From Escherichia coli (GTDB taxonomy: Bacteria; Pseudomonadota; Gammaproteobacteria; Enterobacterales; Enterobacteriaceae), in NCBI RefSeq assembly GCF_041248615.1, contig NZ_CP158425.1: DNA of 64,000 nt. One strand, given 5' to 3'. A program made the position numbers and the translations under genes. Shown piece after piece: positions 12,719-63,667 of this stretch (within the stretch, counting starts at the first letter, position 1; each line of letters opens with the position of its first letter). The notes below the pieces were generated by a model. It was given only the letters and a program-made list of their open reading frames with translations, had not been told where the DNA came from and did not search any database.

Positions 12719-13318
12719 GCGCATATCAAGCCAGAGGAGCCTGAGGTACTTGGTCTTTTAGCCCTCATGGAACTCCAGTGCTCTCGGCTGCTTGCCCGAC
12801 AAGATCGTCAAGGCTTGCCAGTGCCGCTCGATCGTCAGGATCGTGGCTTGTGGGATCGATTGCTCATACGTCGAGGTCTGGAGATAGTTGAGCGAGCATG
12901 CCGCATGTCGTCTCCCACTGGATGGTATCTTCTGCAAGCGTTGATTTCTGCTTGTCACGCGCGGGCTGCGAGCTTTCGAGACACCAATTGGCGAGAGATA
13001 CTGGCGAGATATGACGCGCTCTTCCTGTTGAGCCCTACATACGTAGTTGCCCTCAATCGAGCAGTCGCTGTGTCGTGGGCCATGAACCCCGCTGCAGGGA
13101 TGGCGGTCCTTAAGGCGATTGAGGACGAGTGGGACGTGGAGACCTACCCGCTTTTTCACGCGACGCGGGCGGATTTCCTTTCGCGTCTTGGTTTCCAAGA
13201 CCAAGCTGCGGCAGCCTATCAGGCTGCGGCCGTACTCAGCACCAACCTACCTCAAAAGTTGTTCTTGGTCACGCGCGCTGAGGAATGCCTGGCAGGGTCT
13301 CGGACAGATGTTGGATAA
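12719..13318 (+). pseudogene. C-terminal fragment of an ECF-type sigma-70 factor (DUF6596-like C-terminal domain)
   Basis: The open frame from the IS boundary reads ...EVLGLLALMELQCSRLLARQDRQGLPVPLDRQDRGLWD...LNRAVAVSWAMNP.... It has no N-terminal sigma regions. GC-rich. Confidence 0.45.
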
Positions 13319-13841
13319 CATCAGTCGATTGACGGTGATTGCGCGCACGTGGACGCGCATCATGACAGGTATGACGAGCCTTTGAACGTCCGCTGGCTGT
13401 GCCGGCGCCATCATATCCGGCTGCACTTCTACGGTGAGGACATGTTTCCTATGTGCAGGCCGCATCACGTATGAACGGCGGCTCTCCGGTTATGCCTCAA
13501 CGCCGCTGAAAGCGTCGCGCGGTCAGTCAGCCATGACGATCATACCTTATTCAGATCATGCGATCGGCGCCCTGCCATCAGGAGGATGAAATGCGTAAAG
13601 ATCAGATCCCGGATTTCGTTGATGAGATCTTCGCCACCGGCTGCCCAATCACCGCAGTAGGACAAGATTGCTATGTTTTGCAGAGAGCGATCTGCTGGCA
13701 GAAGACTTCGACCGTGTTGGTGAGGTGGTCGATAAAATCTGCCAGCGATAAGGAAAGCGTGACCATCTGTTGCTGACATCAGAGGTGGCTCGGTTTGTCT
13801 GAACAGTTTTGGGCGTTTTGCTAAGTGGATTTCCGCCTTGA

Positions 13842-14672
13842 TTATGCCGCCACCATCATTGGTGCCAGCGCGTTGAAGTAGGCCTGATCCGGCGTCTGCC
13901 GGTCAAGGGATGAATGTGGACGTCGGCTATTGTAGAAGGCGAGATAGCGGCCGATGCCAGCGCGAGCCTCGGATACGGTCTTGTAGGCGTGGAGATAGAC
14001 CTCTTCGTATTTGATCGACCGCCAGAGCCGCTCGACGAAGACGTTGTCGCGCCACGCGCCCTTGCCATCCATCGAGATGGCGATCTCCGCCTTCTTCAGC
14101 ACGGCTGTGAAGTCGATGGAGGTGAACTGCGAACCCTGATCGGTGTTGAATATTTCAGGCTTTCCATAGCGGGCCAGCGCGTCCTCGACCGCTTCGATGC
14201 AGAAGTCCGCCTCCATCGTGATCGACAGCCGCCAGGACAGAACCCGCCGGCTAAACCAGTCCACGACGGCGCAGAGATAGACGAATCCCCGCGCCATCGG
14301 CACATACGTTATGTCCATTGCCCAGACCTGGTTGGGCCGGGTGACCGCCAGCTTGCGCAGGAGATAAGGATAGATTTTGTGACCTGGCGCTGGTTTGGAG
14401 GTGTTCGGGCGACGGTAGATTGCCTCGATGCCCATCTTCTTCATCAGCGTGGCGACGTGCAACCGCCCGACCTCGGTCCCTTCACCCCTCAAAAGCCCTT
14501 GCAACATCCGACTTCCGGCGAACGGATAGTCGAGGTGCAGTTCGTCGATCCGCCGCATCAGGTCCAGATCGCCGTCGGACACTTGACGTGGAGAATAGTA
14601 GACACTGCCACGGCTGAAGCCGAGAAGCCTGGCCTGACGTGCGACCGACAGTTTGTGTGTTCGGTCGATCAT
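13842..14672 (-). CDS. IS3-family OrfB (DDE/rve catalytic part)
   Basis: ...NQVWAMDITYVPMARGFVYLCAVVDWFSRRVLSW...FNTDQGSQFTS... is the rve core. Confidence 0.85.
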   Translation of the reverse strand: MIDRTHKLSVARQARLLGFSRGSVYYSPRQVSDGDLDLMRRIDELHLDYPFAGSRMLQGLLRGEGTEVGRLHVATLMKKMGIEAIYRRPNTSKPAPGHKIYPYLLRKLAVTRPNQVWAMDITYVPMARGFVYLCAVVDWFSRRVLSWRLSITMEADFCIEAVEDALARYGKPEIFNTDQGSQFTSIDFTAVLKKAEIAISMDGKGAWRDNVFVERLWRSIKYEEVYLHAYKTVSEARAGIGRYLAFYNSRRPHSSLDRQTPDQAYFNALAPMMVAA

Positions 14673-14980
14673 TTCTTTCCGCCCAGCAATCCCGCTTTGC
14701 CGAGCGCTCCGGCTAAAAAATCATTCTCCAATGTCAGTTCGCCTATTTTGGCGTGCAGCGTTTTGACATCGACGGTTGGACCTGCCGGTTCCGCCTTCGC
14801 TTCATCGCCGAAAACGCCTGTCGCCCCATCAAGGAGCTGGTCTTTCCACTGTTTGATCTGGTTGGCATGCACGTCGAACTGCTGGGACAATTCCACCAGC
14901 GTCTGCTCACCTCGGATCGCGGCGAGCGCCACTTTTGCCTTGAAAGCCGGGCTGTGGTTCCGGCGCGGTCGTCTTGTCAT
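14669..14980 (-). CDS. IS3-family OrfA
   Basis: MTRRPRRNHSPAFKAKVALAAIRGEQTLVELSQQF...; overlaps OrfB by 4 nt. Confidence 0.8.
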   Translation of the reverse strand: MTRRPRRNHSPAFKAKVALAAIRGEQTLVELSQQFDVHANQIKQWKDQLLDGATGVFGDEAKAEPAGPTVDVKTLHAKIGELTLENDFLAGALGKAGLLGGKK

Positions 14981-15999
14981 GGTATCTCCTGTTCCCGGCA
15001 TCTAAGCCGAAGTCAGGCAGAAATTCCACTTATCACCGCTGTGCAGATTTCCCGAGCCACCTCTATCGTCGATCATTTGAGGAGCCTCGGCCGTTTCTAC
15101 GACCTGCGGCTTGAGACACTCCAATAGCGACTATGGGTCGGTCCGCGCTTTAGAATAAGGGATCTAGACCCTGTCGCCAATTTTGGCCTGACGGGGGTTT
15201 CCAGCTACGCCTTCATATGTCGTGCCTCAGCCGCGCTGCAAGCGCCGGGCACTGATGCCCAGCATGCTGGTGGTCTTCACCTTTCCGCCGACGCGCCTGA
15301 GGATGATGATTGCCGCGTCCGTGGCCAGCCCGGTGCCGATGGCAGCCAAATGACCCAATTGGAACGGCAGATAGCCCGGCTTGACCACGAGAAGCACTCC
15401 GATGAAGCCGATGACCACGGCGGTCCACCGCCGAACCGCGATGCTGAAGCCACAAATCGAGCTTTGCGAGGAGTTTCTTTATCCGTCTCAATGAGATAAG
15501 GGCCAACTTTAGATCAAGTGCGTCGTAGTACGGCGTGCACCTTGGGCTTGATCCAGCTATAGTGTAATTGTATGCTGGAAATATGTGCAACCCTGGTGTC
15601 TAGGCCGTGCGAAGCCAATCAGGCTCGAAAGTCGTTGCGGGTTGTTATCCGTTAAAGGCGGCGACTGTAGCCGCCGCTATTTGGCCCCTTGATACCATTT
15701 AGCATTTGGAGCTTTAGGTTCTATAATTTAACGTTACGCTACAGCCGACACCCCGCTTGCCTGAGCGTTTGGATTTCAATCACTTAGTAGACCAACTTGC
15801 GGGTCGACGGTTCGTGTCCCTTCAAGGCGGAGGCTTCGGCAGCTGGCGTCTCTATGCCGCGGTGGTGCTTTTCCGAAACGGAAGTCGCCCATTCGCGTCA
15901 CGTAAACCGACCGTCAGGCGGTACGGCTTAGGAGAATAATCGCAAAGCAGACTGAGACCACCACCCTCGCGCTACCCTTTGCGCAGGCGTCGAAGGCGA

Positions 16000-18364: not shown

Positions 18365-18517
18365 TCAATATTATTGAAGCATTTATCAGGGTTATTGTCT
18401 CATGAGCGGATACATATTTGAATGTATTTAGAAAAATAAACAAATAGGGGTTCCGCGCACATGGTGATGCTGCCAACTTACTGATTTAGTGTATGATGGT
18501 GTTTTTGAGGTGCTCCA

Positions 18518-18793
18518 GTGGCTTCTGTTTCTATCAGCTGTCCCTCCTGTTCAGCTACTGACGGGGTGGTGCGTAACGGCAAAAGCACCGCCGGACATCA
18601 GCGCTATCTCTGCTCTCACTGCCGTAAAACATGGCAACTGCAGTTCACTTACACCGCTTCTCAACCCGGTACGCACCAGAAAATCATTGATATGGCCATG
18701 AATGGCGTTGGATGCCGGGCAACCGCCCGCATTATGGGCGTTGGCCTCAACACGATTTTCCGCCATTTAAAAAACTCAGGCCGCAGTCGGTAA
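18518..18793 (+). CDS. insA: IS1 InsA
   Basis: [43 protein letters not shown]... Confidence 0.95.
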
Positions 18794-19215
18794 CCTCGCG
18801 CATACAGCCGGGCAGTGACGTCATCGTCTGCGCGGAAATGGACGAACAGTGGGGATACGTCGGGGCTAAATCGCGCCAGCGCTGGCTGTTTTACGCGTAT
18901 GACAGGCTCCGGAAGACGGTTGTTGCGCACGTATTCGGTGAACGCACTATGGCGACGCTGGGGCGTCTTATGAGCCTGCTGTCACCCTTTGACGTGGTGA
19001 TATGGATGACGGATGGCTGGCCGCTGTATGAATCCCGCCTGAAGGGAAAGCTGCACGTAATCAGCAAGCGATATACGCAGCGAATTGAGCGGCATAACCT
19101 GAATCTGAGGCAGCACCTGGCACGGCTGGGACGGAAGTCGCTGTCGTTCTCAAAATCGGTGGAGCTGCATGACAAAGTCATCGGGCATTATCTGAACATA
19201 AAACACTATCAATAA
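18712..19215 (+). CDS. insB: IS1 InsB reading frame (expressed as InsAB' by -1 frameshift)
   Basis: ...[21 protein letters not shown]...[12 protein letters not shown]. Confidence 0.9.
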
Positions 19216-19230
19216 GTTGGAGTCATTACC

Positions 19231-20737
19231 CTCCCCTCAAAGCCATATCACGTACGTTAATCCTGACTTCATTAAAATCAGTGGTTTCACTGAGGAAGAA
19301 CTATTAGGCCAGCCTCACAACATCGTAAGACACCCAGATATGCCGCCTGCTGCATTTGAGCATATGTGGAGTACATTAAAATCTGGCCGCTCATGGATGG
19401 GGCTAGTAAAAAATCGCTGTAAAAATGGCGACCACTATTGGGTAAGTGCTTATGTAACGCCAATAGCTAAGAATGGTTCGATTGTTGAATACCAGTCTGT
19501 AAGGACCAAGCCTGAACCTGAGCAGGTTTTGGCTGCGGAAAAATTATATGCTCAATTGAGAAGCGGGAAGGCCGCGAGGCCGAAATTGGCTGCTAGCTTT
19601 TCCGTGAAAATACTCTTGCTCATATGGGGTAGTATTATATCAAGCGCAATGGCTGCCGGCATGCTTACTGATACATCAATAAGCAGCTTATTGTTAGCCA
19701 CTTTAATGTCAGGAAGCTTAAGCTCTGTTAGTGTTTTGGCTATTCTCTCTCCTCTTGGAAGACTGGTTGAAAGAGCCAGGAATATTTCCAATAACCCATT
19801 AAGTCAATCCCTCTACACTGGGCGCACCGATGAGTTTGGCCAAATAGAGTTTGCTTTACGAATGATGCAAGCTGAAACAGGCGCCATAGTAGGTCGCATA
19901 GGTGATGCATCAAATCGGCTTAGCGAACACACCCGAGGCCTACTAAAGGATATTGAGTCAAGCAATGTACTTACAGTTGAGCAGCAGGCAGAGACAGATC
20001 AAATAGCAACGGCAGTAAACCAAATGGTGGCAAGCATTCAAGAGGTTGCGAGCAATGCACAGCATGCTGCAGATGCGGCCGGAAGAGCAGACACTGAGAC
20101 GGCATCTGGCCAGCGTCTGGTAGCCCACACAAGCCAGTCAATCACTGCCCTTGAAGGTGAAATTAGGCAAGCCACTCAGGTTATTCATGAGCTTGAAGGT
20201 CAAAGTAACGAGATATCAAAAGTTCTTGACGTTATACGAGGGATCGCCGAGCAAACGAATTTGTTGGCACTCAACGCAGCAATTGAGGCCGCGCGTGCTG
20301 GTGAGCAGGGGCGTGGTTTTGCTGTTGTCGCCGATGAGGTTCGCAGTCTTGCTGCTCGCACACAGCAATCGACAACGGATATTCAAAGCATGATCAGCGC
20401 TCTACAAGAGCGAGCGCAATCCGCTGTTACAGTCATGGAGCAAAGTAGTCGGCAAGCGCACACGAGTGTAGCTCACGCAGAGGAAGCAGCTACAGCTCTT
20501 GATGGAATTGGCCAACGCGTTAACGAAATTACCGACATGAACGCGCAAATAGCGACTGCGGTCGAGCAGCAGGGAGCAGTAAGTGAAGACATAAACCGCA
20601 GTATTATCAATATACGCGATGCTGCTGATACCAATGTACAGACCGGGCAGAATAATTTGCAAAGTGCGAAATCTGTCGCTCAGTTAACTAGCGCTCTGAG
20701 CGAACTGGCAAAACAGTTTTGGGAAAAACGAGGATAA
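19231..20737 (+). pseudogene. Aer-like PAS-domain methyl-accepting chemotaxis protein, N-terminus removed by IS1
   Basis: The frame opens at the IS1 boundary. The PAS core [39 protein letters not shown]...NGDHYWV resembles E. coli Aer. It is followed by a hydrophobic hairpin, HAMP and the MCP signalling domain ([31 protein letters not shown]). Confidence 0.8.
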
Positions 20738-37498: not shown

Positions 37499-38091
37499 AG
37501 ACCGTTCTCCTTTTCTGATGCGGTTATGATGGCATACAAAAAAAAGGTTAGAGCTCGTATAGCATGGTCGTTTTTATGTTGAAAAGGACGGAAAAGGAGT
37601 GCTGACTAAGAAGATAGTCTCGGTGATGGAAAGATCATCCATCTTGCACATTGTGAAAAATCCGGTGTAACAAAAACATGGTTTTATCGAATATCTAAAA
37701 GCAAATATTGCTTTGAAAACAGGTGTATTAAGAGCTGAAAAAAATCATCACCAGTAACGCTGTTTCTATATTTCAAAGAAGGAATAGCTAAGGATCAAAG
37801 AAGCGAACTTAGGCAAGAATATAAAATATATTAATTGAAAGCGATTAAGAAGTCGTCATGCATAGAAGGTTTTAGAGAACCTAAGTAGTTTTACGTTTTC
37901 AACAGAAAAAAAGGTGAACATTTTTTGGAACGAAGAAAGACTGTATAAAGAAAAATCAAATTATATCTTTACTTGTCAAGAGTTAATATTTAAGTTGTAA
38001 CTAATATTTGATTGTAAAGCAAACAACAGAATTTGACTTAAGTCAATATTTAGATTCAGACAAGGCAAGTTTCGCGATATCTTTTTTAAAT

Positions 38092-38604
38092 TTAATCTAA
38101 TTCTTCTTGAGAATACCTCTCTATGGCTGAAGCAGTTGAAGATAATCTGCAACGTGGACAATAAGCATCATTTGTCACTGGCACAATGTATGGGCGTTTA
38201 CATTTTTCGCAGGCACCTAGTTCTTCAATTTCTTTCATAGAAGTAAGGATTTCTATTATTTTATTAACTTCCGGTGCGCATACAAAGTATCCCAGATTAT
38301 GAAGGACACTCATTATTCGGTTGAAGTCAATTTGCCGAAAACTCGCTTCCGGATTTATTGGATCAAAACCAAAATAGTTAACTGCGACATCAATAACAGC
38401 AGAAAAAGCTCGGCGGTTATCTGTGCGTTTGCTCCAGCCCCGGATACCTTTTTTGAGTTTTGTTTTTGCACCAGGCTCAAAATCGATATTTTCAGCAACA
38501 TGATTACCGTACAAAATTCGTATTGTATTTTTATTTGCCCCAAGCGACATAGTCCTTGCTGCTCGCAATAGAGCATTAGCTTTTGTTTGATCGACCTTTG
38601 CCAT
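38092..38604 (-). CDS. FlhC-family transcriptional activator subunit (SetC/AcaC type)
   Basis: 170 aa. C-terminal zinc-ribbon CEKC...CPRC as in FlhC. Sits upstream of traFHG as in SXT/IncC-type elements. Confidence 0.75.
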   Translation of the reverse strand: MAKVDQTKANALLRAARTMSLGANKNTIRILYGNHVAENIDFEPGAKTKLKKGIRGWSKRTDNRRAFSAVIDVAVNYFGFDPINPEASFRQIDFNRIMSVLHNLGYFVCAPEVNKIIEILTSMKEIEELGACEKCKRPYIVPVTNDAYCPRCRLSSTASAIERYSQEELD

Positions 38605-38605
38605 A

Positions 38606-39406
38606 TTAATAATCCTTTAACATAACTTTATTTGTTAAAGTGTTGAACACATCCTGACGGTGACTGGTGAACATAGTGTCATAACGTAATAGTTCCATCA
38701 AATCATCACTAACTTTTCCTAACCGGATGTCAGCAGACAATTCATAAGCCCAGGCAAAAACTTTCGTTTTAAGTGAAACACTCTCTTCAATATGCCCTTG
38801 TGAGAAAGCAATTGTACGTGGGAAAAGAACGACATCGTTAATTGTTTTTAACGATGAATAACCAATGTCTTTAATAGCATCAGCTGTAGTTGGTTTTAAA
38901 CCAAAGAAAACACTTACAAACTCTGGTGCGAGCATTGAGATAAAGAACACCTGCATAAAGTAGTCATTCTGTATATCAACACATTTAGAACGCAACTCAT
39001 GAATCTTCTTGGGATTATAGATATCCACTGTACCATTCAGAAAAGTCACTTTTTCACCGGCATCGTAAATACCATAGTCAATATCATTTGTATCATATTC
39101 ACGAATTACATTGGAATCACCGTCCAAGACCGCAGAAAAAAACCTCTCCCATGTAATTTCCTTTCCGAGTGTACGCGGAACCAAAAAACTACCTGGACGT
39201 GTTTCCACTTCAAAAGCTAAATCAGCGGCTGTACTAAATCCTTTCCCAAATAGGCGACGCTGGAGAAGAGGAGTCCCAGTTTGATATGCAGAAGATCCAT
39301 GCACAGGCAATAACATTAAAAATGCACGGTAACTACGAATAAGCGAAATCTCAGTGCGGAAAAGTTTACCGAGTAAGCTACGAGTTAAATTATCAGATTC
39401 TGACAT
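38606..39406 (-). CDS. putative FlhD-like activator subunit (SetD/AcaD position) with about 140-aa N-terminal extension
   Basis: Stop codon lies 1 nt before the FlhC-like ATG. Residues about 145-210 (YFMQVFFISMLAPEFVSVFFGLKPTTADAIKDIGYSSLKTI) weakly resemble the FlhD helical core. The assignment rests mostly on synteny. Confidence 0.45.
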   Translation of the reverse strand: MSESDNLTRSLLGKLFRTEISLIRSYRAFLMLLPVHGSSAYQTGTPLLQRRLFGKGFSTAADLAFEVETRPGSFLVPRTLGKEITWERFFSAVLDGDSNVIREYDTNDIDYGIYDAGEKVTFLNGTVDIYNPKKIHELRSKCVDIQNDYFMQVFFISMLAPEFVSVFFGLKPTTADAIKDIGYSSLKTINDVVLFPRTIAFSQGHIEESVSLKTKVFAWAYELSADIRLGKVSDDLMELLRYDTMFTSHRQDVFNTLTNKVMLKDY

Positions 39407-39733
39407 GTGCTGATTGTCCTTGCGCCATTACAATTGTTCAAATCTTCAACATGGATTTTTTGTTAGGTGTTCGGTAGGGTGAAAAGTAACTTTTAGTATT
39501 TTCTTAAGGCTTGAATAAGCCTTAAATCTATCCCTTCAACCACACCGCTTACTTGTAACACTTTTTAACCAAACTGACCAGAATTTTATCAAAATTTCTT
39601 CGCATGCTAACGAAATGTGAAGCGATTAAAAAAAAACCTAAATCCAGCCCCTCCCAACGTTGGATTAGAATAACGACGTCTTTCACTGACCGTCATAAAC
39701 TGACATTTTTACTTTTCATCAACCTCATGCTTA

Positions 39734-39897
39734 CATAGGATCACTAAACAAAGAAAAGTGACCCTATGAATGCCTCACATAGGGTCACTTATGTTTGAAA
39801 AGTGACCCTATGTAATGTCGTCATAGGGTCACTTTTTATAAAAGTGTCACTATGGACAAAGTTCCATAGGGTCATTTTTTTTGGAAAAGTGGCACTA
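39734..39897. repeat. array of eight alternating half-sites (AAAAGTGACCCTATG / CATAGGGTCACTTTT) forming three tandem 35-46-bp hairpin-capable dyads
   Basis: Half-sites at 39734-39746(r), 39754-39768, 39778-39790(r), 39797-39812, 39822-39836(r), 39840-39855, 39864-39877(r) and 39884-39897. Read directly from the sequence. Confidence 0.9.
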
Positions 39898-40164
39898 GAT
39901 ATATGTATAACTTTAATAGAGCAATGCACATTATCAAAAGCAATAATCCACAATGGTCATTCCCTCAAAAGTAACTTTAGAGGGTAGCGATGGAAGTGAG
40001 GCTAAACTCGCTGTTACTGTTTCTGAAGGCCCCTCCCGAATGGGGGAAACAGCGAGTGCATTACATCTGTTCAATTCCCTCATCAAAGAGCATTCAAAAA
40101 TCTTCTGTTCGTGAAAAAAAACGGAAATTTCCTCCGGTATAGTAATTTCACATCAGGAGGCGTC

Positions 40165-40650
40165 ATGAGTAATTCGAATCTTATAAGTTCTATAGAGCTA
40201 ACACGTAAAAATTTACGTGCTCAGATTGAAGGTTTGCGTGTTGAGGCTGAAGATCTCATTACAAAATACTGGATCAAGTGGAAGGAACGAAACCACCAAG
40301 AGATTAACCTTACCCGACATAGCAAAGTTCCAAAGAGGGAGTATCTGGGTTCTTACGCACCAAAAGTTGAGCTAATTGGTAATGCCAGAAAAGTAACGAT
40401 CACTTGGCATCAGTTCAGCCCTTATAAAACAAGAGCGCCTAGTCACATGTCAAAACGGGTGCAACCAATGAAAAGTGGAAAATATTCTAAGAACTGTTTT
40501 GTAAACCATGCCAGCTGGGAATACGAAATGATTTCTGAAACGGAAGCATTGCTGGAGCCTTACAGAGAAATGCTTGAGCTCTATCATTCAGCATATATCG
40601 AACTTGGACGAAAAATCCGTCAATACTCAAAAACTAAGGTGGCACAATGA
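40165..40650 (+). CDS. hypothetical protein, first gene of the relaxase operon (possible MobI-like oriT accessory factor)
   Basis: AGGAGG RBS 5 nt before the ATG at 40165 (161 aa). The MobI analogy rests only on position, next to a repeat-rich region and traI. Confidence 0.5.
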   Translation: MSNSNLISSIELTRKNLRAQIEGLRVEAEDLITKYWIKWKERNHQEINLTRHSKVPKREYLGSYAPKVELIGNARKVTITWHQFSPYKTRAPSHMSKRVQPMKSGKYSKNCFVNHASWEYEMISETEALLEPYREMLELYHSAYIELGRKIRQYSKTKVAQ

Positions 40651-41384
40651 CCGACGCAATTATCACGGACAATGAGCGTATTAACATTGAACCAAAAGAT
40701 GTAATGGTAAAAGGTTCAAATAAAAAGCAAGGCGTAAACGCTCAAACTTCTACTCAACGTAGACCAGAGCACCAGGGTATGGCCAAAGTTATTATTAACC
40801 CCGGCACCCCAGATTTTAACCGGTTTTTAACTGCCAGAAATGGAGCAGTCATCAGAGGTTTTGATGATGTGAGTATCGCTATTTCCTCTCTCTTTAAAAC
40901 GGTTGATGCAGTTAAACATCCTGACCTTGTTCAGGCTATTCAGGATTGGTTCAACGAGCTGCATGAAGAAAACAATAAGATGAAAGAAAATCTTGTTGCT
41001 TATATTAAGTCAATTGAGTTCGACAAGAATGACTCATTCATGTCATCAACTCAGTTTGTACCTTTCAGTTTTGAACCAGTACAACTCAACTTCAATAACC
41101 ACAACACCATGAGGTTTTACAAGTACATCTTCGAGATGAACCAGCTCATGAACACAATGTATGAGTACAACTCATTGGGTTTACTGGCTGTAAGCGACTA
41201 TCCGGTTATGTCTCACAACATTATAAAGAGTATTAATTTATATGTTGAGAATGTGAAAAAGACTCTGAATGTTTCTCGCCGTAAGGATGGGCCATACAGT
41301 CCAGCAGAGTTCATCACCAAAGTAATGCAATATAAAAGTGTGCAGGCATACATTGCAGCCGAACTGTCAGGCAAACGTCGATAA
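40647..41384 (+). CDS. hypothetical protein (translationally coupled, ATGA overlap)
   Basis: 245-aa ORF between orf161 and traI. Confidence 0.55.
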   Translation: MTDAIITDNERINIEPKDVMVKGSNKKQGVNAQTSTQRRPEHQGMAKVIINPGTPDFNRFLTARNGAVIRGFDDVSIAISSLFKTVDAVKHPDLVQAIQDWFNELHEENNKMKENLVAYIKSIEFDKNDSFMSSTQFVPFSFEPVQLNFNNHNTMRFYKYIFEMNQLMNTMYEYNSLGLLAVSDYPVMSHNIIKSINLYVENVKKTLNVSRRKDGPYSPAEFITKVMQYKSVQAYIAAELSGKRR

Positions 41385-41387
41385 GGT

Positions 41388-44300
41388 ATGATGATGAATT
41401 TCAGGGCGCTGTATTTATGTATTAAACGGATTTTGGGGATATTCTCATCTCAGGAGAATGATGCAACCTCTGTAATGATTGAGGATATATCAAGCCTCTC
41501 TCCTTTTGCGCAGATTCTAGGAGATCAGAAGTACACTGTTCCTGATCATCCAAATCCAGAAGTCCTGAAATTCATCGAGTATCCAACTCGTCCGACGGGC
41601 ATACAGACATTTAATGAACAGTCAATCCTGTCTCTGTATCGGGAAAAGCTGCACTCAATTTCAATGATGTTAGCTATCAGCGATAGCGACATCAGGGACG
41701 ATGCATATACATTTACTAATTTAGTATTAAAGCCCTTGGTTGAATATGTTCGCTGGATACATCTTTTGCCAGCTTCCGAAAATCATCATCATAATGGTAT
41801 TGGTGGGTTACTTTCTCACAGCCTGGAAGTGGCCATACTCTCTTTAAAAAATGCGCATCACTCAGAACTGAGACCAATCGGATATCAAGATGAAGAAGTA
41901 GTCCGTAGAAAAGTATATCTCTATGCTGCGTTTATCTGTGGTTTAGTCCATGATGCCGGAAAGGTTTACGATCTCGATATTGTAAGCCTGAATTTAGCTA
42001 GTCCGATCATTTGGACGCCAAGCTCACAAAGTCTTCTTGACTGGGCACGTGAAAATGACGTGGTTGAATACGAAATCCACTGGCGAAAGCGTATTCATAA
42101 TCAACATAATATCTGGTCCAGCGTTTTCCTTGAGCGAATCCTAAACCCGGTATGTCTTGCATTTTTGGATCGGGTAAATAAAGAACGTGTTTATTCAAAA
42201 ATGATCACCGCCCTAAACGTTTATACTGATGGGAATGACTTTTTGTCTAAATGCGTGAGGACCGCTGATTTCTATTCTACTGGTACAGACCTTAATGTTT
42301 TACGTGACCCTATCATGGGTCTGCGTTCTAATGATGCAGCAGCAAGGGCCATTAGTACCATCAAGCACAACTTTACCAGTATCAATATCAACAATTACAA
42401 TGCTAAGCCTATGCACATCATTATCGTAAATGGTGAGGTATACCTTAACGAGAACGCATTCCTTGATTTTGTTCTCAATGATTTCGAATTACATAAATAT
42501 AACTTCCCTCAGGGAGAGGCTGGTAAGACGGTATTGGTAGAATCCCTAGTTCAACGTGGTTACGTCGAGCCCTATGATGATGAGCGTGTCGTTCACTACT
42601 TCATTCCGGGTATCTATTCGGAAAACGAAATATCAAACATCTTTAGAAATGGGATAGGGAAACTAGAATTCTATAACCTTCTTAAGCTAAGGTGGATTGG
42701 TTTAATCTTTGATTCCTATAAAATCCCTGACTCAGTGCCGGGTCTTTTTAGCGTTAATGCCAATAAAGACTTTATTTACATTGACGAGCAAAAAACAGTT
42801 ACTGAATACAGAAGACCAGTGCCCGGTCGGGACGCTATAACTAAAATTACTGATACTGTTGAGACGGCTGTTCTTAAGGTTAATGATTTAGGCCGCTCCA
42901 CTGCCTCTATTGATGTTGATATACATTCTAAGAAAAATGAAGGCTCATCCGACGATTTTGAGAAGAAAGCCGAAAGTGATAATGAAATTGATAATGACAC
43001 GCAGATAGTTAAATCTGAGGGTGAGGAAGCAGCTGATCCTGTCATTCCTGATATAGAAGAAAGTGAAGATGAATCGGCAAAGGACACGGAATCCCATGTC
43101 CTGGTCAACCAACTTCATGAACTCCTTTTAAGCGCTCCACTTTCCAATGACTATATAGTGTGTGTAGATGCTGTCCCCTACCTCAACATAGATGCCACTA
43201 TGGCATTGCTGCCGGGATTAGATGAAAAAGCATTTAGTGAAGAGCCCTATTTCCAACTGACATTCAGAGAAGGCTCTCTCGATGGAATGTGGATAGTAAG
43301 GGACATTGACGATCTGCGTTTAGTCCAGCTCGGCGATAACTGCGCCGGGTTCCAGCTCACCTATCATGAGCCAAGAAGGCCAACAACTTTAAAGTCACTT
43401 TTCAATACTTCTATGTATCAGGCATTAGTGATTAATGATGAGTCTTCTGTTGAAAACTCTGCCCCACGTCCAAAGCAAACGCTTGAGCTGCCTCCCCCAC
43501 GTGTAAATGCACTCGAAGAACATTCTGGCGACGTGGAATATCATGGAACCGATAGTGCATCCGCGACTGGTCCGCTGAAAACTGAGGCTGTGGAATATGA
43601 ACATTATCAACATCTTTTTGAGGAAGAAGATGAAGAGCATGAGATCATTGATTATACCGATTTCACACAGCTTAGTGTTTCTCGGCCAGAAGTCGGTAGT
43701 TGTGCAACAAGCTCTTCGGTCCATAATGAAAAGCTTCTCCCCGAGCCGTCAGAATTACCAGAACTTAACCGAGAACAGAACGCTGATCCCCAGGGTACGA
43801 TTGAACGCTCTATGGATGTTTCTGTAGGACAAGAAAACTCAGAACCAGATACTGAGGGTAACTGCCCACCACCAGCTGAAGTTGTGTATTCCCAGACCGA
43901 AGCAGCCGCAACCAGTGTGATGGCAAGTGAAGAGCCCGCCTTACCTCCTGTACTTGAAGAATCAAATGGAGAGCATGCGCCCACAGACGCTAAGGGGCAT
44001 CATCTTTCGCCAGCACTGGCCAGACTGTTCGCCCCAACAGCACCGGTAGAAAAACAAAATCCCAAGCGCAACCGGAATAAATCATCGGACAAAGCAGAAG
44101 TACAAAAACCAGCATCACCTGTTTCTGGTCACAATCTGAACAGTAAAGTCTTTGCAACTACTGAATCAGACCAAAATGGTGAATTCTCGCTTATAAGCGA
44201 AGGTGACGTTACAGAGCTTGAATTTGTAGAAATTGCGTCAGTACTGCATCAAATTCTGTCCAAAATGGAGGTGGCGTTTAAAAGAAAGCGCAAAAACAGA

Positions 44301-44540
44301 TTTATGGTAAGTACTCCTAATACTCTCTATCTGACCCAATCTTGCGTGGAAAAATTTGGGTCGCAGTTAGAGGCTCAAGATCTTTTCAATAAGCTTCCTC
44401 AGTACCTCGTTAATTCTGGTGCTGTGATCAATACAAAATGCCATGCATTTAACATGCCTACTTTGCTGGCCGCATCAGACCGGGCGAAAGTGGACATTGA
44501 ACGAATTATCAATAACCTGAAAGAGGCTGGGAACCTATAA
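41388..44540 (+). CDS. traI: MOBH-family relaxase TraI (HD-domain type)
   Basis: 1050 aa. HD-domain signature ...HNGIGGLLSHSLEVAI...GLVHDAGKVYD is typical of SXT/R391/IncC/IncHI TraI. Acidic low-complexity C-terminal half. Confidence 0.85.
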   Translation: MMMNFRALYLCIKRILGIFSSQENDATSVMIEDISSLSPFAQILGDQKYTVPDHPNPEVLKFIEYPTRPTGIQTFNEQSILSLYREKLHSISMMLAISDSDIRDDAYTFTNLVLKPLVEYVRWIHLLPASENHHHNGIGGLLSHSLEVAILSLKNAHHSELRPIGYQDEEVVRRKVYLYAAFICGLVHDAGKVYDLDIVSLNLASPIIWTPSSQSLLDWARENDVVEYEIHWRKRIHNQHNIWSSVFLERILNPVCLAFLDRVNKERVYSKMITALNVYTDGNDFLSKCVRTADFYSTGTDLNVLRDPIMGLRSNDAAARAISTIKHNFTSININNYNAKPMHIIIVNGEVYLNENAFLDFVLNDFELHKYNFPQGEAGKTVLVESLVQRGYVEPYDDERVVHYFIPGIYSENEISNIFRNGIGKLEFYNLLKLRWIGLIFDSYKIPDSVPGLFSVNANKDFIYIDEQKTVTEYRRPVPGRDAITKITDTVETAVLKVNDLGRSTASIDVDIHSKKNEGSSDDFEKKAESDNEIDNDTQIVKSEGEEAADPVIPDIEESEDESAKDTESHVLVNQLHELLLSAPLSNDYIVCVDAVPYLNIDATMALLPGLDEKAFSEEPYFQLTFREGSLDGMWIVRDIDDLRLVQLGDNCAGFQLTYHEPRRPTTLKSLFNTSMYQALVINDESSVENSAPRPKQTLELPPPRVNALEEHSGDVEYHGTDSASATGPLKTEAVEYEHYQHLFEEEDEEHEIIDYTDFTQLSVSRPEVGSCATSSSVHNEKLLPEPSELPELNREQNADPQGTIERSMDVSVGQENSEPDTEGNCPPPAEVVYSQTEAAATSVMASEEPALPPVLEESNGEHAPTDAKGHHLSPALARLFAPTAPVEKQNPKRNRNKSSDKAEVQKPASPVSGHNLNSKVFATTESDQNGEFSLISEGDVTELEFVEIASVLHQILSKMEVAFKRKRKNRFMVSTPNTLYLTQSCVEKFGSQLEAQDLFNKLPQYLVNSGAVINTKCHAFNMPTLLAASDRAKVDIERIINNLKEAGNL

Positions 44541-46624
44541 TGTCAGATTCGAAGAGGACTAACCTCCATGCACAAGAGAATTTTTATCGGCCTATTCTTG
44601 AGTATCGTAGTGCCTCAATACTTTTGATTTGTTCGGTTTCTATGCTTTATATGGGACTTTCTTCAGACGGACTGGACATCGCCCCAATAGTTCTGTTCAC
44701 CTCAATATTGCTTTTTTTGCTGTGCCTTTATCGTTGCAAAACAGCAGCGCCATTCTTGATGGCTCATTGGCGTGTATTCAAGCGACATTTCATGTTCGTT
44801 AGTCTTGATTCACTGCGTGTAATTAACAAAAGTAACTTTTTCTCCAATGAGCGAAAGTATCGTCAACTGGTTCAGGATTATCAAAATAAAAATAAGGATA
44901 TACCCGAGCGAAAGTCCTATTTTTGTGATGGGTTTGAGTGGGGCCCGGAACATGCGGATCGGGCATATCAAATAGCTAACCTCTCCAGTGATAAACGTGA
45001 GATCGAGTTGCCATTCGTCTTCAACCCAATTAAGAGACATTTTGACGCAATGGCTCGTAAGATGGGCGGCAGCAATGCAATTTTTGCTGTGGAACGTAGG
45101 GAACCCATATTTGTAACTGAAGACAATTGGTTTGGTCATACTCTGATAACCGGAAACGTGGGTACCGGGAAAACGGTGCTACAGCGTTTACTAAGCATTA
45201 GCATGCTTCATCTTGGTCATGTTGTTGTTGTCATAGATCCAAAGAACGATGCAGAGTGGCGAGAATCTCTAATGGAAGAGGCTAAGACCCTCGGTCTTCC
45301 TTTCTATAAATTTCATCCTGGCCAGCCAGCATCTTCGGTCTGTATTGATGTCTGCAACACCTATACTAATGTTTCTGACCTAACATCTCGTCTTTTGAGC
45401 TTGGTGACAGTTCCCGGTGAGGTTAACCCATTCGTTCAGTATGCCAAGGCTCTCGTTTCCAATGTGATTTCCGGGCTTTCTTACATAGAGAAAAAGCCTT
45501 CTATTTATCTGATTCACAAGAACATGAAAAGCCACATGTCTATTGTGAATCTTACAGTCAAGGTAATGGAGTCATGTTACGCGAGATATTATGGTTACGA
45601 TGTCTGGACCGAAAAAGTTAAGTACGTCGCTAACGAAACCTTGCCGGTACGTTTCAAGCGTCTCGCTGAATGGTTTACGGCTCATTTCATGAATTACGAG
45701 GGGTCCGAACAAATAGACTGGTTAGATACTGTTTCCCAGCTTATTGATTACTCAATGTCCGACCCAGAGCATATGGCTAAAATGACCGCAGGTATTATGC
45801 CTGTTTTCGATATGCTCATTGAAAAACCTTTAAATGAGCTTTTATCTCCTAACCCGAACTCAGTATCATCAAGAGAAATTGTAACAAGCGAAGGGATGTT
45901 CAGCACTGGCGGGGTGCTATACATTTCGCTTGATGGCCTTTCAAACCCCGATACAGCAGCTGCTATTTCTCAATTAATAATGTCAGATCTGACCTCCTGT
46001 GCCGGTAGTCGCTACAACGCTCAGGATGGTGATATGTCAGCTAATTCCAGGATAAGTATTTTTGTTGATGAGGCACACTCAGCCATTAACAACCCTATGA
46101 TTAACCTTCTGGCGCAGGGTCGTGCAGCGAAAATTGCACTGTTTATTTGCACCCAAACCATCTCCGACTTTATTGCTGCGGCAAGTGTTGAAACTGCCAA
46201 TCGAATTACGGGGCTCTGCAACAATTATATAAGCTTGCGAGTCAACGATACTCCTACTCAGACGCTTGTTGTAGAGAACTTTGGTAAGAGTGCGATAAGC
46301 ACAAATATGGTCACTTATACGACCGGTTCAGAAACATCTTTGCCGCATAATAACTTCTCAGGTTCAATCTCAGAAAGAAAGCAGACAACTTTAGAAGAGA
46401 GTATTCCAAAGGATCTCTTGGGTCAGGTCCCTATGTTTCACATAGTTGCCAGGCTTCAAGATGGCAGGAAGGTTGTAGGCCAAATCCCTATTGCTGTTGC
46501 TGAGAAACAAATGAAGCCAAACACAACTCTGTCGGAAATGCTTTTCAAGAAGGCCGGAAAAGTTACTTTGCGTCAAAATCTCGATATCAAAAATCTTAAT
46601 AAATTTCTAAGGAAGTTGCATTGA
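44540..46624 (+). CDS. traD: type IV coupling protein TraD
   Basis: 694 aa. N-terminal TM segments, Walker A GNVGTGKT and Walker B-like ISIFVDEAH. ATG overlaps the traI stop by 1 nt. Confidence 0.85.
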   Translation: MSDSKRTNLHAQENFYRPILEYRSASILLICSVSMLYMGLSSDGLDIAPIVLFTSILLFLLCLYRCKTAAPFLMAHWRVFKRHFMFVSLDSLRVINKSNFFSNERKYRQLVQDYQNKNKDIPERKSYFCDGFEWGPEHADRAYQIANLSSDKREIELPFVFNPIKRHFDAMARKMGGSNAIFAVERREPIFVTEDNWFGHTLITGNVGTGKTVLQRLLSISMLHLGHVVVVIDPKNDAEWRESLMEEAKTLGLPFYKFHPGQPASSVCIDVCNTYTNVSDLTSRLLSLVTVPGEVNPFVQYAKALVSNVISGLSYIEKKPSIYLIHKNMKSHMSIVNLTVKVMESCYARYYGYDVWTEKVKYVANETLPVRFKRLAEWFTAHFMNYEGSEQIDWLDTVSQLIDYSMSDPEHMAKMTAGIMPVFDMLIEKPLNELLSPNPNSVSSREIVTSEGMFSTGGVLYISLDGLSNPDTAAAISQLIMSDLTSCAGSRYNAQDGDMSANSRISIFVDEAHSAINNPMINLLAQGRAAKIALFICTQTISDFIAAASVETANRITGLCNNYISLRVNDTPTQTLVVENFGKSAISTNMVTYTTGSETSLPHNNFSGSISERKQTTLEESIPKDLLGQVPMFHIVARLQDGRKVVGQIPIAVAEKQMKPNTTLSEMLFKKAGKVTLRQNLDIKNLNKFLRKLH

Positions 46625-51956: not shown

Positions 51957-52388
51957 TGATGATCTCCTGTCTTGTGAGAGACCAGTTATATCAGGGTGAT
52001 TCAGTATTTCCGTTTAGAAAAGAGTACTAATTTGGCCCTGTTCGATCTTAATTTGCCATCCGGGAAAAAGTCATAGGGATAGGCCTGCCAGAGTCAATAA
52101 CTTCCAGTGATCTGGAGGAGACCCCGGCTCTCTGAGCCCTCATGGATGGTACGGCTTTACCCCCTGTAAACAGATTCACGTTCCGCAGGACAAACATCGA
52201 CTACTGACGTCTCATATTTGCTGACGCTAATCCGACGTCTCATTGCCGTCTGCTTGTTTTCTTTAAAGGGTGTATTAGACGAATATCAAATCGGAATGGT
52301 AGGGGATGTGTGGGCACCATGCCCGGCCCTCTTTGAGCATCTGAGAGATTGGAGACCTAGCCGGGTAAGATAGCTACTTTCTTACGGG

Positions 52389-55234: not shown

Positions 55235-56419
55235 TCATGACTGTCCCTTGTTCATCTTATCAGCATGCTTACGCAGGTACTCTTTCAGGTCAGCATGAGC
55301 GTTGATGATATCGTTCATTTCATCATTGGTCAGAACAAGCGTGTAAGTATCAGTACTGACAGATTCACCTTCTTTAAGCTTGGCTTCTTCAGCAATACGT
55401 TCAAAAATCGGGATCGCGGTGTCTGCAATGACGGTCACAGTCTTTTTGTTCAGAACGCTGGACATGGAAGGTGCTTTACCTGCCGGGTTCTGTTTAGGAG
55501 CGCTGTCCTTTGGAGCTGGAGCCGGTTCCTGTACCGGTGGCGTATCCAGCGTCTCCGTATTGCTTTCATCGTTCAGTTGATCCGGTACCGGGGTGTTATC
55601 GGTAGTATCATCTGCCGGTTGCTCAGCACCGATGTTTTCCGGAGTCTGCGGATCTGCCATGCGCTCTTCTACCTTGGCAGCTTTGACGAATTTCAGCGTG
55701 TTTTTCGTCGCCTTGCCATAGATGGAGATCGCTTTGTTGATGTTATCTACCGCATCCTCACCGCTGTACATATACTCGTCCAGTGCAACGTACATGCTCA
55801 CCTGATCGCTCACAAGCATGGTCTGTAGTTCAGAAGGCAGGTCCAGTACGCGAACCATCTGGCGAAGATGCTGCTCTGATTTACCACGTTTTTTTGCCAG
55901 TTCCGCAAAGGTCTTAGGCTCTTCTTTATCTTCAACCAGACGCTTAATTGAAAGCGCTTCAGCTACGACAGACAGCGCCAGGTTGGAGTTGCCGGTCAGG
56001 GTGAAGAGTTCTGCTTTTGAAGCGCTACCGCGAAACTCTTCGCAGCGAATACGAGTAATGCGTTCACGCCCTTCTGCTTCCAGCTGGCGGTTTGCAATAG
56101 CGATGGAACGGATACGGCAAGCCCCCTGACGCAGTACAGGTACGCCATTAACCATCTGAACAACGATAGGCGTCACGCTGAACGGGTCTTCCATGTAGGC
56201 ATCGGCCAGGCTGTTCAGGTGTTCCACAACGTGAGGCATTGAATAGTAGAGCTCGCCCATACCGGCCGTGCGGGTGTTAAAGCCTTCCTGCTCTACAACA
56301 ACCGAAGGGTCAATGATAAGGCCGTTGCCTTTACGGGCACCGTTACCAGTGCGTTCCAGGTAACCACGAAGGCTGATTTCGTTGCTGTTGTTTTTTACTT
56401 CAGTTTCGATTGCGGACAT
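55235..56419 (-). CDS. ParB/KorB-like DNA-binding protein (orphan, no adjacent ParA)
   Basis: 394 aa. ParB N-terminal-domain-like region (LIIDPSVVVEQEGFNTRT ... LRQGACRIRSIAIA), an HTH region (KTFAELAKKRGKSEQHLRQMVRVLDLPSELQ) and an acidic/proline-rich linker. Confidence 0.7.
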   Translation of the reverse strand: MSAIETEVKNNSNEISLRGYLERTGNGARKGNGLIIDPSVVVEQEGFNTRTAGMGELYYSMPHVVEHLNSLADAYMEDPFSVTPIVVQMVNGVPVLRQGACRIRSIAIANRQLEAEGRERITRIRCEEFRGSASKAELFTLTGNSNLALSVVAEALSIKRLVEDKEEPKTFAELAKKRGKSEQHLRQMVRVLDLPSELQTMLVSDQVSMYVALDEYMYSGEDAVDNINKAISIYGKATKNTLKFVKAAKVEERMADPQTPENIGAEQPADDTTDNTPVPDQLNDESNTETLDTPPVQEPAPAPKDSAPKQNPAGKAPSMSSVLNKKTVTVIADTAIPIFERIAEEAKLKEGESVSTDTYTLVLTNDEMNDIINAHADLKEYLRKHADKMNKGQS

Positions 56420-56834
56420 TTTTGTTCTCTTTTTTGGTTGGTTGTTTAACTGCGCTACAACACAACAATACCAGGTTCGACATTTTTCCTAATAGGTTGC
56501 GGAGAAGAAAAAGTAACTTTTTTTAAAAATTTTCCTGAGGCAATACTACTCGATCCGTCCGTTTTAAATCTTCACAACAGTGGGCCGTTTTTACGTTTAA
56601 GCAAAATAACTGGTTCAGAAGGTGACTCAGAGAGAAAAGTTACTTTTCCGGTTGTCTGGGCCAGTGATGGGAGAGTGGCAGGACAGGAATGGCTAAACCG
56701 GTGCGGGTCTCTTGTAAGTCGCAGGGGATTCAGGAGATATAGAGGTAAACTGGTACGTTCAGTTTTTGGATTGAGCCGGGCTTTTGGCCCGGGCTTAAGG
56801 AAGCAGAAATTTGAACGAACTGGCAGGTAATGCT

Positions 56835-63488: not shown

Positions 63489-63667
63489 CGGTTGCCTTCC
63501 ATTCAGGGAGAATTCTCAGTAATTACATCACACCTGAAGAGAAACTATTTTCGTATAAATGAGCATTTTCGACATATCAGAGGGGGGGTTTACTCATAAA
63601 TGAGGTAGTAAGGGTCACACTTGAGGTGAAAGTTACTTTCCTGGCTGCGAACGAACTATCTCAAATG

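Follow-up and report, generated by a model that had tools for sequence, protein, structure and literature searches.

The intergenic region between trhR and traH of an IncHI2 (R478-type) plasmid contains a regular array of eight short half-sites. Our preferred interpretation, to which we assign a probability of roughly 0.6, is that this array provides the repeated recognition sites of the IncHI origin of transfer (oriT), and that TraH dimers bind its everted units and recruit the relaxase TraI. The gap that contains the array is orthologous to the oriT-bearing intergenic region of R27, and Lawley et al. reportedly cloned the R27 traH–trhR intergenic fragment in 2002 and saw it mobilised by R27. 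The locus is the known IncHI transfer-origin region seen in finer detail, and not a new kind of element; the array itself is most likely the platform onto which the accessory proteins of transfer are loaded. A four-unit everted lattice, its conservation pattern and its uniqueness within the plasmid were not found described in a literature search that lacked the original R27 oriT paper, and the same search likewise held no description of the conserved flank or of the separation between the array and a dispersed palindrome. Text searches of the literature for the motif returned unrelated matches only.

Gene neighbourhood and anatomy of the array

The window, i.e. the whole 64-kb stretch of DNA that was analysed, is from an IncHI2 (R478-type) plasmid. 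As the first-pass annotation of this DNA had claimed, a trhR/trhY activator operon is divergent from an operon containing traH (MobI), orf245, traI (MOBH) and traG. TrhR and TrhY are activators of the IncHI transfer operons (PMC7366339). TraH matched the Pfam MobI family PF19456 (E 2.7e-22, 79.5 bits, cut-off 26.6) and TraI matched PF07514 TraI_2 (E 1e-32); PGAP names the genes here mobI, mobH and traD. The array is intergenic, and the mobI-family gene beside it shares an operon with the genes for the MOBH relaxase and the coupling protein. The gap from 39407 to 40164 is 758 bp long and free of genes, as had been reported, with all mechanical ORFs at most 61 aa. The array begins 431 bp and ends 266 bp upstream of the traH ATG (40165), in agreement with the earlier estimate of about 270-430 bp. 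Coordinates of all features are given in Table 1.

Eight 15-bp half-sites with the consensus AAAAGTGACCCTATG alternate strictly in orientation from 39734 to 39899, a span of 166 bp, and consecutive half-sites are separated by gaps of 5, 9, 5, 9, 3, 10 and 5 bp. Inspection of the sequence bore out the eight alternating half-sites of the first-pass annotation to within one base: the degenerate outer copy at 39734 is present, and the last copy starts at 39885 instead of 39884. With up to 3 mismatches allowed, AAAAGTGACCCTATG matched the window eight times compared to an expectation of 1.73, a count that was reached in 0 of 100 shuffles, and six of the eight matches were inside the array. Similarly, CATAGGGTCAC matched seven times with at most 1 mismatch (0.58 expected). 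Both strands of the segment from 39725 to 39915 folded far better than shuffled sequences (z -7.9 and -7.2), and the array region is AT-rich, with a GC content of 37-38% compared to 48% across the window. The array is confirmed as real and far beyond chance. The three places per record returned by our first BLAST search were the array aligning to its own reverse.

Table 1. Features of the trhR–traH region and of related loci in the window (a dot marks features given no strand)
Feature	Coordinates	Strand	Description
trhY	38092-38604	-	activator of IncHI tra operons, divergent from array
trhR	38606-39406	-	activator of IncHI tra operons, divergent from array
13-bp palindrome left of array	39482-39494	.	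AAAAGTAACTTTT, 76 bp upstream of trhR start
Conserved block with predicted leftward promoter	39545-39620	-	consensus match only
Half-site 1	39734-39748	-	CATAGGATCACTAAA, degenerate in IncHI2, perfect in IncHI1
Half-site 2	39754-39768	+	AAAAGTGACCCTATG
Half-site 3	39778-39792	-	CATAGGGTCACTTAT
Half-site 4	39798-39812	+	AAAAGTGACCCTATG
Half-site 5	39822-39836	-	CATAGGGTCACTTTT
Half-site 6	39840-39854	+	AAAAGTGTCACTATG
Half-site 7	39865-39879	-	CATAGGGTCATTTTT
Half-site 8	39885-39899	+	AAAAGTGGCACTAGA
Unit 1, everted pair (half-sites 1 and 2)	39734-39768	.	5-bp gap
Unit 2, everted pair (half-sites 3 and 4)	39778-39812	.	5-bp gap
Unit 3, everted pair (half-sites 5 and 6)	39822-39854	.	3-bp gap
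Unit 4, everted pair (half-sites 7 and 8)	39865-39899	.	5-bp gap
Conserved flank	39894-39911	.	ACTAGATATATGTATAAC, fused to last half-site
13-bp palindrome right of array	39967-39979	.	AAAAGTAACTTTA here, perfect in IncHI1
traH	40165-40650	+	161 aa, MobI family
orf245	40647-41384	+	traH operon
traI	41388-44540	+	MOBH relaxase, TraI_2 domain
traG/traD	44540-46624	+	coupling protein
ParB-HTH protein gene	55235-56419		394 aa, PF17762 ParB HTH domain

Putative promoters lie on both sides of the array. The only good promoter-like match in the intergenic region was found in the conserved block from 39545 to 39620 and reads leftward, with TTAGCA at 39610-39605, a 16-bp spacer, TAAAAT ending at 39583 and an upstream TG; judged by its consensus match, it is the probable promoter of trhR. 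A ninth half-site-like element, AAAAGTGTTACAAGTAAG, is present on the minus strand at 39548-39565. The final 60 bp upstream of traH are conserved, and TATAGT at 40138-40143 was picked out by eye as the likely -10 element of traH.

Conservation defines an everted repeat unit

The intergenic region was compared with those of a set of relatives: the IncHI1 plasmid pHCM1 (TraH 76% identical), p8025 (75%), a Photorhabdus plasmid (86%), two metagenomic contigs (54%), one partial contig (59%) and, more distantly, Klebsiella and Pluralibacter plasmids (39%) and Vibrio plasmids (32%). Scanning genome contigs added little diversity to this set. Positions 39407-40164 are 100% identical in R478 and in several hundred (about 950) IncHI2 plasmids. 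Between IncHI2 and IncHI1 plasmids synteny is kept, and the mean column identity over the whole intergenic region is 84%.

All eight half-sites are present in IncHI1, in IncHI1B and in the relative with 54% TraH identity. The gaps differ little: 5, 9, 5, 9, 3, 9 and 5 bp in both IncHI1 types, and 5, 9, 5, 10, 3, 10 and about 5 bp in the 54% relative. Conservation was concentrated in the half-sites: IncHI2 and IncHI1 are identical at 93% of half-site positions compared to 42% of positions in equal-length spacers (Fisher p 5e-10), and the corresponding values for IncHI2 and the 54% relative are 78% and 27% (p 5e-8). Individual peculiarities were also preserved. Unit 3 retains its 3-bp gap and CAC-type right half-site in IncHI1, Photorhabdus and the 54% relative, and GGCAC-type half-sites are found at positions 6 and 8 across families. 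Half-site 8, which ends in ACTAGA, is identical in IncHI2, IncHI1, IncHI1B and Photorhabdus. Variants and gap lengths held position by position are the signature of sequence-specific protein-binding sites at fixed distances, and the retention of position-specific variants is more readily explained by a protein that recognises specific sequence than by hairpin structure alone.

Copy number and pairing were informative as well. Six half-sites only are present in the Photorhabdus plasmid and in the IncHI1A plasmid pPSJ-16_1, and the region of the latter is 44 bp shorter than that of pHCM1, which is exactly one -/+ pair plus a spacer. In the Klebsiella and Pluralibacter plasmids the motif has drifted to AAAAGKTACMAATG and the inter-pair distances have changed to 12 and 23 bp, with three -/+ pairs and their 5-bp gap preserved. 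Because distant relatives keep only the -/+ gaps and inter-pair distances vary, the conserved unit appears to be the everted pair CATAGGGTCACTTTT-N3-5-AAAAGTGACCCTATG, which is 33-35 nt long and recurs every 43-44 bp to give three or four copies. The first-pass annotation had grouped the half-sites into three +/- dyads plus two orphan half-sites; these dyads are present exactly as quoted, but it is the -/+ pairs that distant relatives keep, so that a grouping into four everted units, which leaves no half-site over, is the better one.

Other elements of the gap behaved differently. The hairpin with a 9-bp stem at 39503-39525 exists, as does the CCAACGTTGG palindrome, although the latter is at 39654-39663, one base from where it had been placed; conservation in IncHI1 was not found for either of them or for a nested inverted repeat at 40006-40057. 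TAGGGT does lie beside the dyad at 39476, although it is not conserved in IncHI1. The hybrid copy (at 52066) and the copy near 63611 that had been listed also exist, but each is a single, weak match.

The best-conserved non-repeat element across IncHI families is the sequence ACTAGATATATGTATAAC, which is preserved in IncHI1, in Photorhabdus and in the relatives with 54-59% TraH identity, and partly in Klebsiella (ACTTATGTATAAG). We speculate that the minus strand of this flank could contain nic, because it is conserved and because of a loose analogy with the oriT of the gonococcal island (GGI). The IncP nic consensus YATCCTGY had no match in any of six relatives, and neither did the IHF consensus WATCAANNNNTTR in these six. 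We know of no MOBH1 element with a mapped nic, a nic consensus or biochemically shown MobI binding sites. A nic-like motif common to the IncC oriT was considered, and the TAGAT..ATATGTA-like strings of pSN254 lie in AT-rich repeats and were treated as chance; the best of them, at 129-146, falls outside the minimal IncC oriT if the coordinates match those of R55. For pNDM-CIT-type plasmids oriTfinder gives a 284-bp oriT, which was set aside because it may correspond to the P-type oriT reported for IncHI1 plasmids of this kind.

The array is a single-copy site

We assembled the complete IncHI2 plasmid pSH111_227 (227,608 bp) from pieces and scanned it for the motif with at most 2 mismatches. Six array sites and one isolated match were found, such that the array is present in one copy per replicon. 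No similar sites were observed near parA/parB (13018-15272) or parM/parR (18380-20067) of this plasmid, near either of its rep genes, or in its Tra2 region (the AC-operon genes trhB, trhV and a TraC-family gene, and htdA). The motif was also not found in the F-operon promoter region of the window (37499-38091).

A single-copy cis-acting site fits an oriT, and is unfit for the operator of an activator that serves four operons or for the centromere of distant par genes. A partition centromere is not supported, as the par genes are about 145 kb from the array and the motif does not occur there; the parS suggested by the first-pass annotation lacks support on the same evidence, with no copy at either parAB or parMR. 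A multi-promoter operator, whether a TrhR/TrhY box or the master operator suggested earlier, is not supported either, since the motif does not recur in the F-operon promoter region or in the Tra2 region. An iteron-type replication origin likewise lacks support, with the RepB-family gene (1-876) and repHI2 (209995-211083) of the reference plasmid lying far off. Finally, an Rfam scan of 39200-40400 for known structured RNAs detected only generic miRNA-like hairpins, at 13-30 bits compared to gathering scores of 55-440. Of the three functions that had been put forward, oriT is the best supported: the region is orthologous to the R27 oriT region, has a MobI-family neighbour, is AT-rich and occurs once.

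A dispersed palindrome and its probable reader

The 13-bp palindrome AAAAGTNACTTTT is a system separate from the array. It occurs 13 times in the window compared to an expectation of 0.24, and 43 times plasmid-wide, mainly in the backbone and often within genes. One copy lies on each side of the array, and the position of both is conserved in every family, Klebsiella included. Its probable reader, judged from sequence, is a protein with a ParB HTH domain that is conserved in IncHI2, IncHI1 (about 64% identity) and the Klebsiella plasmids (35%). The three families examined have 2, 3 and 5 palindromes upstream of the gene for this protein, a cluster that looks like autoregulation. The suggestion that the array might be the centromere of this ParB-like protein was not upheld, as the protein has its own candidate operator in the 13-bp palindrome.

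The resemblance between array and palindrome that the first-pass annotation had noticed is real. Each half-site opens with nine bases (AAAAGTNAC) that match the left 9 of 13 palindrome positions and are constant in all families. However, another six conserved bases (CCTATG) are present in the half-sites and absent from the palindrome, and the half-site arms are everted (ACTTTT-N3-5-AAAAGT) whereas those of the palindrome are inverted around a single base. Given the six extra bases and the everted geometry, binding of the ParB-HTH protein next to the array seems more likely than binding to the array itself.

TraH as the candidate reader of the array

Several published observations bear on the identity of the protein that reads the array. 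The mobI-like genes of SXT and R27 directly adjoin oriT (PMC10838148), R27 TraH, which is necessary for transfer, is cited as the MobI-like factor that MOBH11 relaxases need, and proteins of the MobI family associate with themselves and are presumed to recognise oriT (PMC13635750). For IncC MobI, which self-associates, modelling gave an antiparallel dimer whose positively charged beta-sheet face is proposed to bind oriT, the binding being supported by genetics and modelling (PMC13635750). In the AlphaFold model of TraH (pLDDT 84), a long helix (residues 3-47) is followed by three strands and a second long helix (117-160), which is the topology described for IncC MobI (helix, three strands, helix). 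A Foldseek search of the PDB with this model gave no significant match (best E 0.22).

We infer that TraH reads the half-sites, with one dimer per everted unit. A symmetric dimer would suit a dyad unit, and by rough estimate a 45-residue helix would measure about 67 Å, or about 20 bp, which is the distance between half-site centres in an everted unit. In our preferred model, one TraH dimer would occupy each of the four everted dyad units, CATAGGGTCACTTTT-N3-5-AAAAGTGACCCTATG, placed about 44 bp apart, and the resulting multi-dimer complex would mark a single site on the plasmid for recruitment of the MOBH relaxase TraI. Nicking would take place close to the array, with ACTAGATATATGTATAAC as a speculative nic region. 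Occupancy of the array may also tune the trhR and traH promoters, since the array sits between them and accessory proteins bound at oriT have this effect in other plasmids.

Other MobI families also carry family-specific repeat arrays upstream of mobI. Vibrio pVPS92-type plasmids have eight direct CGGCACCGAACT repeats arranged as four pairs, and IncC has ATCTGGAATCTT in both orientations; neither contains TrhR or TrhY. TrhR, TrhY, TraH, Orf245 and TraI diverge at similar rates between families, and covariation therefore cannot single out TraH. Moreover, AAAAGTNAC is common to the half-sites and the 13-bp palindrome, whose reader probably differs, so that a second protein may touch the half-sites. 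Counting against the preferred model, 266-431 bp separate the array from traH, in contrast to the IncC oriT, which abuts mobI.

Alternative explanations

The shared AAAAGTNAC raises the question of whether the ParB-HTH protein itself reads the array, with eight weak, one-armed operator-like sites nucleating a KorB/ParB-type complex over oriT and the divergent promoters that silences trhR and traH or assists the relaxase. Consistent with this idea, every half-site begins with that sequence and it is the distal part that drifts, a palindrome lies on either side of the array at a conserved position, the protein is conserved in the same three plasmid families with palindrome clusters upstream of its gene in each, and ParAB reportedly interacts with TraI and assists this MOBH2 relaxase in the gonococcal island system (cited in PMC13635750). 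Nevertheless, we consider it improbable: CCTATG is found in the half-sites and not in the palindrome, the arms are everted and not inverted around one base, and 43 palindromes compared to one array imply that the array is not simply another operator. We regard as equally improbable a purely transcriptional role, in which the array would serve the divergent trhR and traH promoters as an operator for TrhR/TrhY, or for TraH acting solely as an autoregulator, with oriT elsewhere in the gap. The array does sit between the predicted leftward promoter and the traH leader, and oriT accessory proteins commonly autoregulate (F TraM/TraY, R388 TrwA). The R27 H operon, which starts with traH, requires TrhR and TrhY, although binding sites are undescribed there (PMC7366339). 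However, TrhR/TrhY are activators of the F, AC and Z operons as well, and the F promoter and Tra2 regions are devoid of the motif. Neither TrhR nor TrhY had a Pfam, NCBIfam or PDB sequence match indicating a DNA-binding domain. In addition, a simple operator would not need eight sites spread across 166 bp at a distance of 120-240 bp from either putative promoter, and the repeat arrays upstream of mobI in families without TrhR/TrhY do not fit this explanation.

The favourable folding of both strands of 39725-39915 would also be expected if the half-sites formed single-stranded hairpins bound directly by TraI, with a single unit used as the relaxase site proper and the rest being redundant or serving termination. 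The size of the everted unit, 33-35 nt, is near that of the 32-nt inverted repeat of the minimal GGI oriT (PMC6736028), and conserved non-repeat sequence abuts the last unit. On the other hand, no more than 10 of 15 positions would pair in unit 4, and the mismatches have been conserved instead of compensated; position-specific variants likewise point to sequence and not to shape; in GGI it was shape and not sequence that mattered (PMC6736028). Furthermore, MOBH1 systems need MobI and MOBH2 systems seemingly do not (PMC13635750), and three or four tandem copies would be needless for a relaxase hairpin. We therefore hold direct hairpin recognition by TraI to be very improbable, and retain recognition of the everted units by TraH dimers as the preferred interpretation.

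Comparison with known transfer origins

The closest known system is the oriT of R27 (IncHI1). This locus is orthologous, is bordered by the same genes and has all eight half-sites, and the proteins are 74-85% identical to those of the window. The window differs in being IncHI2, in the divergence of the spacers and of about half of the intergenic region, and in the degeneracy of half-site 1. In the classical oriTs (TraM at sbmA-C and TraY in F, TraJ/TraK in RP4 and TrwA in R388), phased accessory sites lie beside nic, and the accessory proteins are small oligomers that recruit or stimulate the relaxase and autoregulate adjacent promoters. These proteins are of the ribbon-helix-helix and other types and are unrelated to the MobI family; their binding arrays are partly summarised in PMC5587640.

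In IncC, oriT spans 150 bp of AT-rich sequence that directly precedes mobI and contains repeats in both inverted and direct orientation, and the authors who described it state that attempts to map nic failed (PMC5587640). AT-richness, inverted and direct repeats and a neighbour of the mobI family are common to the IncA/IncC and SXT/R391 oriTs and the IncHI locus. In contrast, there is no sequence similarity between IncC and IncHI. The IncC array is irregular, abuts mobI and overlaps the mobI promoters, whereas the IncHI array is a regular 44-bp lattice at least 266 bp from traH, and the regulators differ as well (AcaCD in IncC, TrhR/TrhY in IncHI). In the GGI oriT, the MOBH2 TraI nicks 3 nt 5' of the 32-nt inverted repeat (PMC6736028). 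The likeness lies in a MOBH relaxase and an inverted repeat of about 32 nt near nic, close in size to one everted unit; the differences are a single repeat, an apparent lack of a MobI requirement, dependence on shape over sequence and a relaxase of another sub-clade. The KorB OB operators of IncP resemble the dispersed palindrome and not the array: the likeness is a 13-bp palindrome scattered over the backbone, in promoters and within genes, and associated with a ParB-family HTH protein. The array half-sites, compared to OB, are 15 bp long, asymmetric and confined to one locus.

The IncHI array could be the cleanest natural example of a general rule for MOBH1 transfer origins, with MobI-family dimers on three or four phased dyad units, nic in the flank fused to the last half-site and the ParB-HTH protein at the two flanking palindromes gating assembly. 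We consider such a rule unlikely; if true, the MobI binding code and the MOBH1 nic site would be readable from sequence.

Implications and natural occurrence

Plasmids of the R478-type IncHI2 group are important vehicles for mcr-9, blaNDM and heavy-metal resistance. By analogy with R27, their oriT has so far been located no more finely than an intergenic fragment of about 0.75 kb. The lattice offers precise targets for footprinting and cleavage assays, namely eight half-sites and one flank, and would be useful for the design of minimal mobilisable vectors and for spotting IncHI-type oriTs in sequence data. Its architecture is that of an ordinary oriT and leaves the present understanding of conjugation unchanged.

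Natural carriers of the array alone, such as small plasmids or chromosomal islands without tra genes, were sought among the database matches and none was convincing. Records of 24.7 kb and 105 kb that contain the array are fragments or remnants, and the matches to E. coli chromosomes look like integrated IncHI DNA.

Variation of the half-site array and its flanking sequences

Natural variants of the trhR-traH intergenic array were found with six rather than eight half-sites in a Photorhabdus plasmid and in the IncHI1A plasmid pPSJ-16_1. Comparison of pPSJ-16_1 with the IncHI1 plasmid pHCM1 revealed a clean 44-bp deletion, which corresponds to one unit, i.e. an everted half-site pair plus spacer. 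We also observed an IncHI1 remnant in the unrelated IncFII/IncR plasmid pMB3093_1. The alignment starts inside the array region and includes its final ~65 bp, the remaining intergenic DNA up to traH, traH itself and a shortened ORF 3' of traH; a fragment of a restriction-enzyme gene and IS1 border the remnant.

Among the non-repeat sequences of the intergenic region, ACTAGATATATGTATAAC, which is joined to the last array half-site, shows the strongest conservation across IncHI families. This sequence is a possible nic region or promoter element. On the trhR side, a conserved block contains a predicted leftward promoter that likely serves trhR. An isolated half-site-like element within this block, AAAAGTGTTACAAGTAAG, would fall immediately downstream of the predicted transcription start. 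The interval between the array and traH contains a perfect 10-bp inverted repeat, ACTCGCTGTT / AACAGCGAGT, surrounding a GC-rich inner hairpin; this repeat is not conserved in IncHI1.

Upstream of mobI, Vibrio pVPS92-VEB-type plasmids carry eight direct CGGCACCGAACT repeats arranged as four pairs, with a within-pair distance of 55 bp. These repeats separate mobI from a PRTRC/ParB gene cluster.

Table. Coordinates of sequence features in the window and in comparison loci
Feature	Locus	Coordinates	Strand
AAAAGTNACTTTT, copies 1-7	window	26516, 27417, 29510, 36422, 39041, 39482, 39967	
AAAAGTNACTTTT, copies 8-13	window	43390, 44828, 46558, 51460, 56509, 56635	
Conserved block	window	39545-39620	
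AAAAGTGTTACAAGTAAG	window	39548-39565	-
ACTAGATATATGTATAAC	window	39894-39911	
ACTCGCTGTT / AACAGCGAGT	window	40006-40057	
ParB HTH-domain protein	window	55235-56419	-
Six-half-site variants	L016; L024	2616-2737; 2502-2622	
CGGCACCGAACT repeat regions	L005; L015	2460-2943; 1959-2443	
pMB3093_1 remnant	L023	4001-5164	

The dispersed palindrome and the ParB-HTH protein

The window holds 13 copies of the 13-bp palindrome AAAAGTNACTTTT, against an expectation of 0.24, and the whole 227-kb plasmid holds 43, chiefly in backbone DNA and frequently within genes. The palindrome sequence is invariant across plasmid families whose proteins share only 27-39% identity. Copies were also counted upstream of the gene encoding the 394-aa ParB HTH-domain protein (window 56420-56760; L032 1-700; L031 1-700), yielding two in IncHI2, three in pNDM-CIT and five in a Klebsiella IncHI1B/FIB plasmid. 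The arrangement looks like that of a KorB-like protein that binds DNA globally and regulates its own gene, with the palindromes as its operators.
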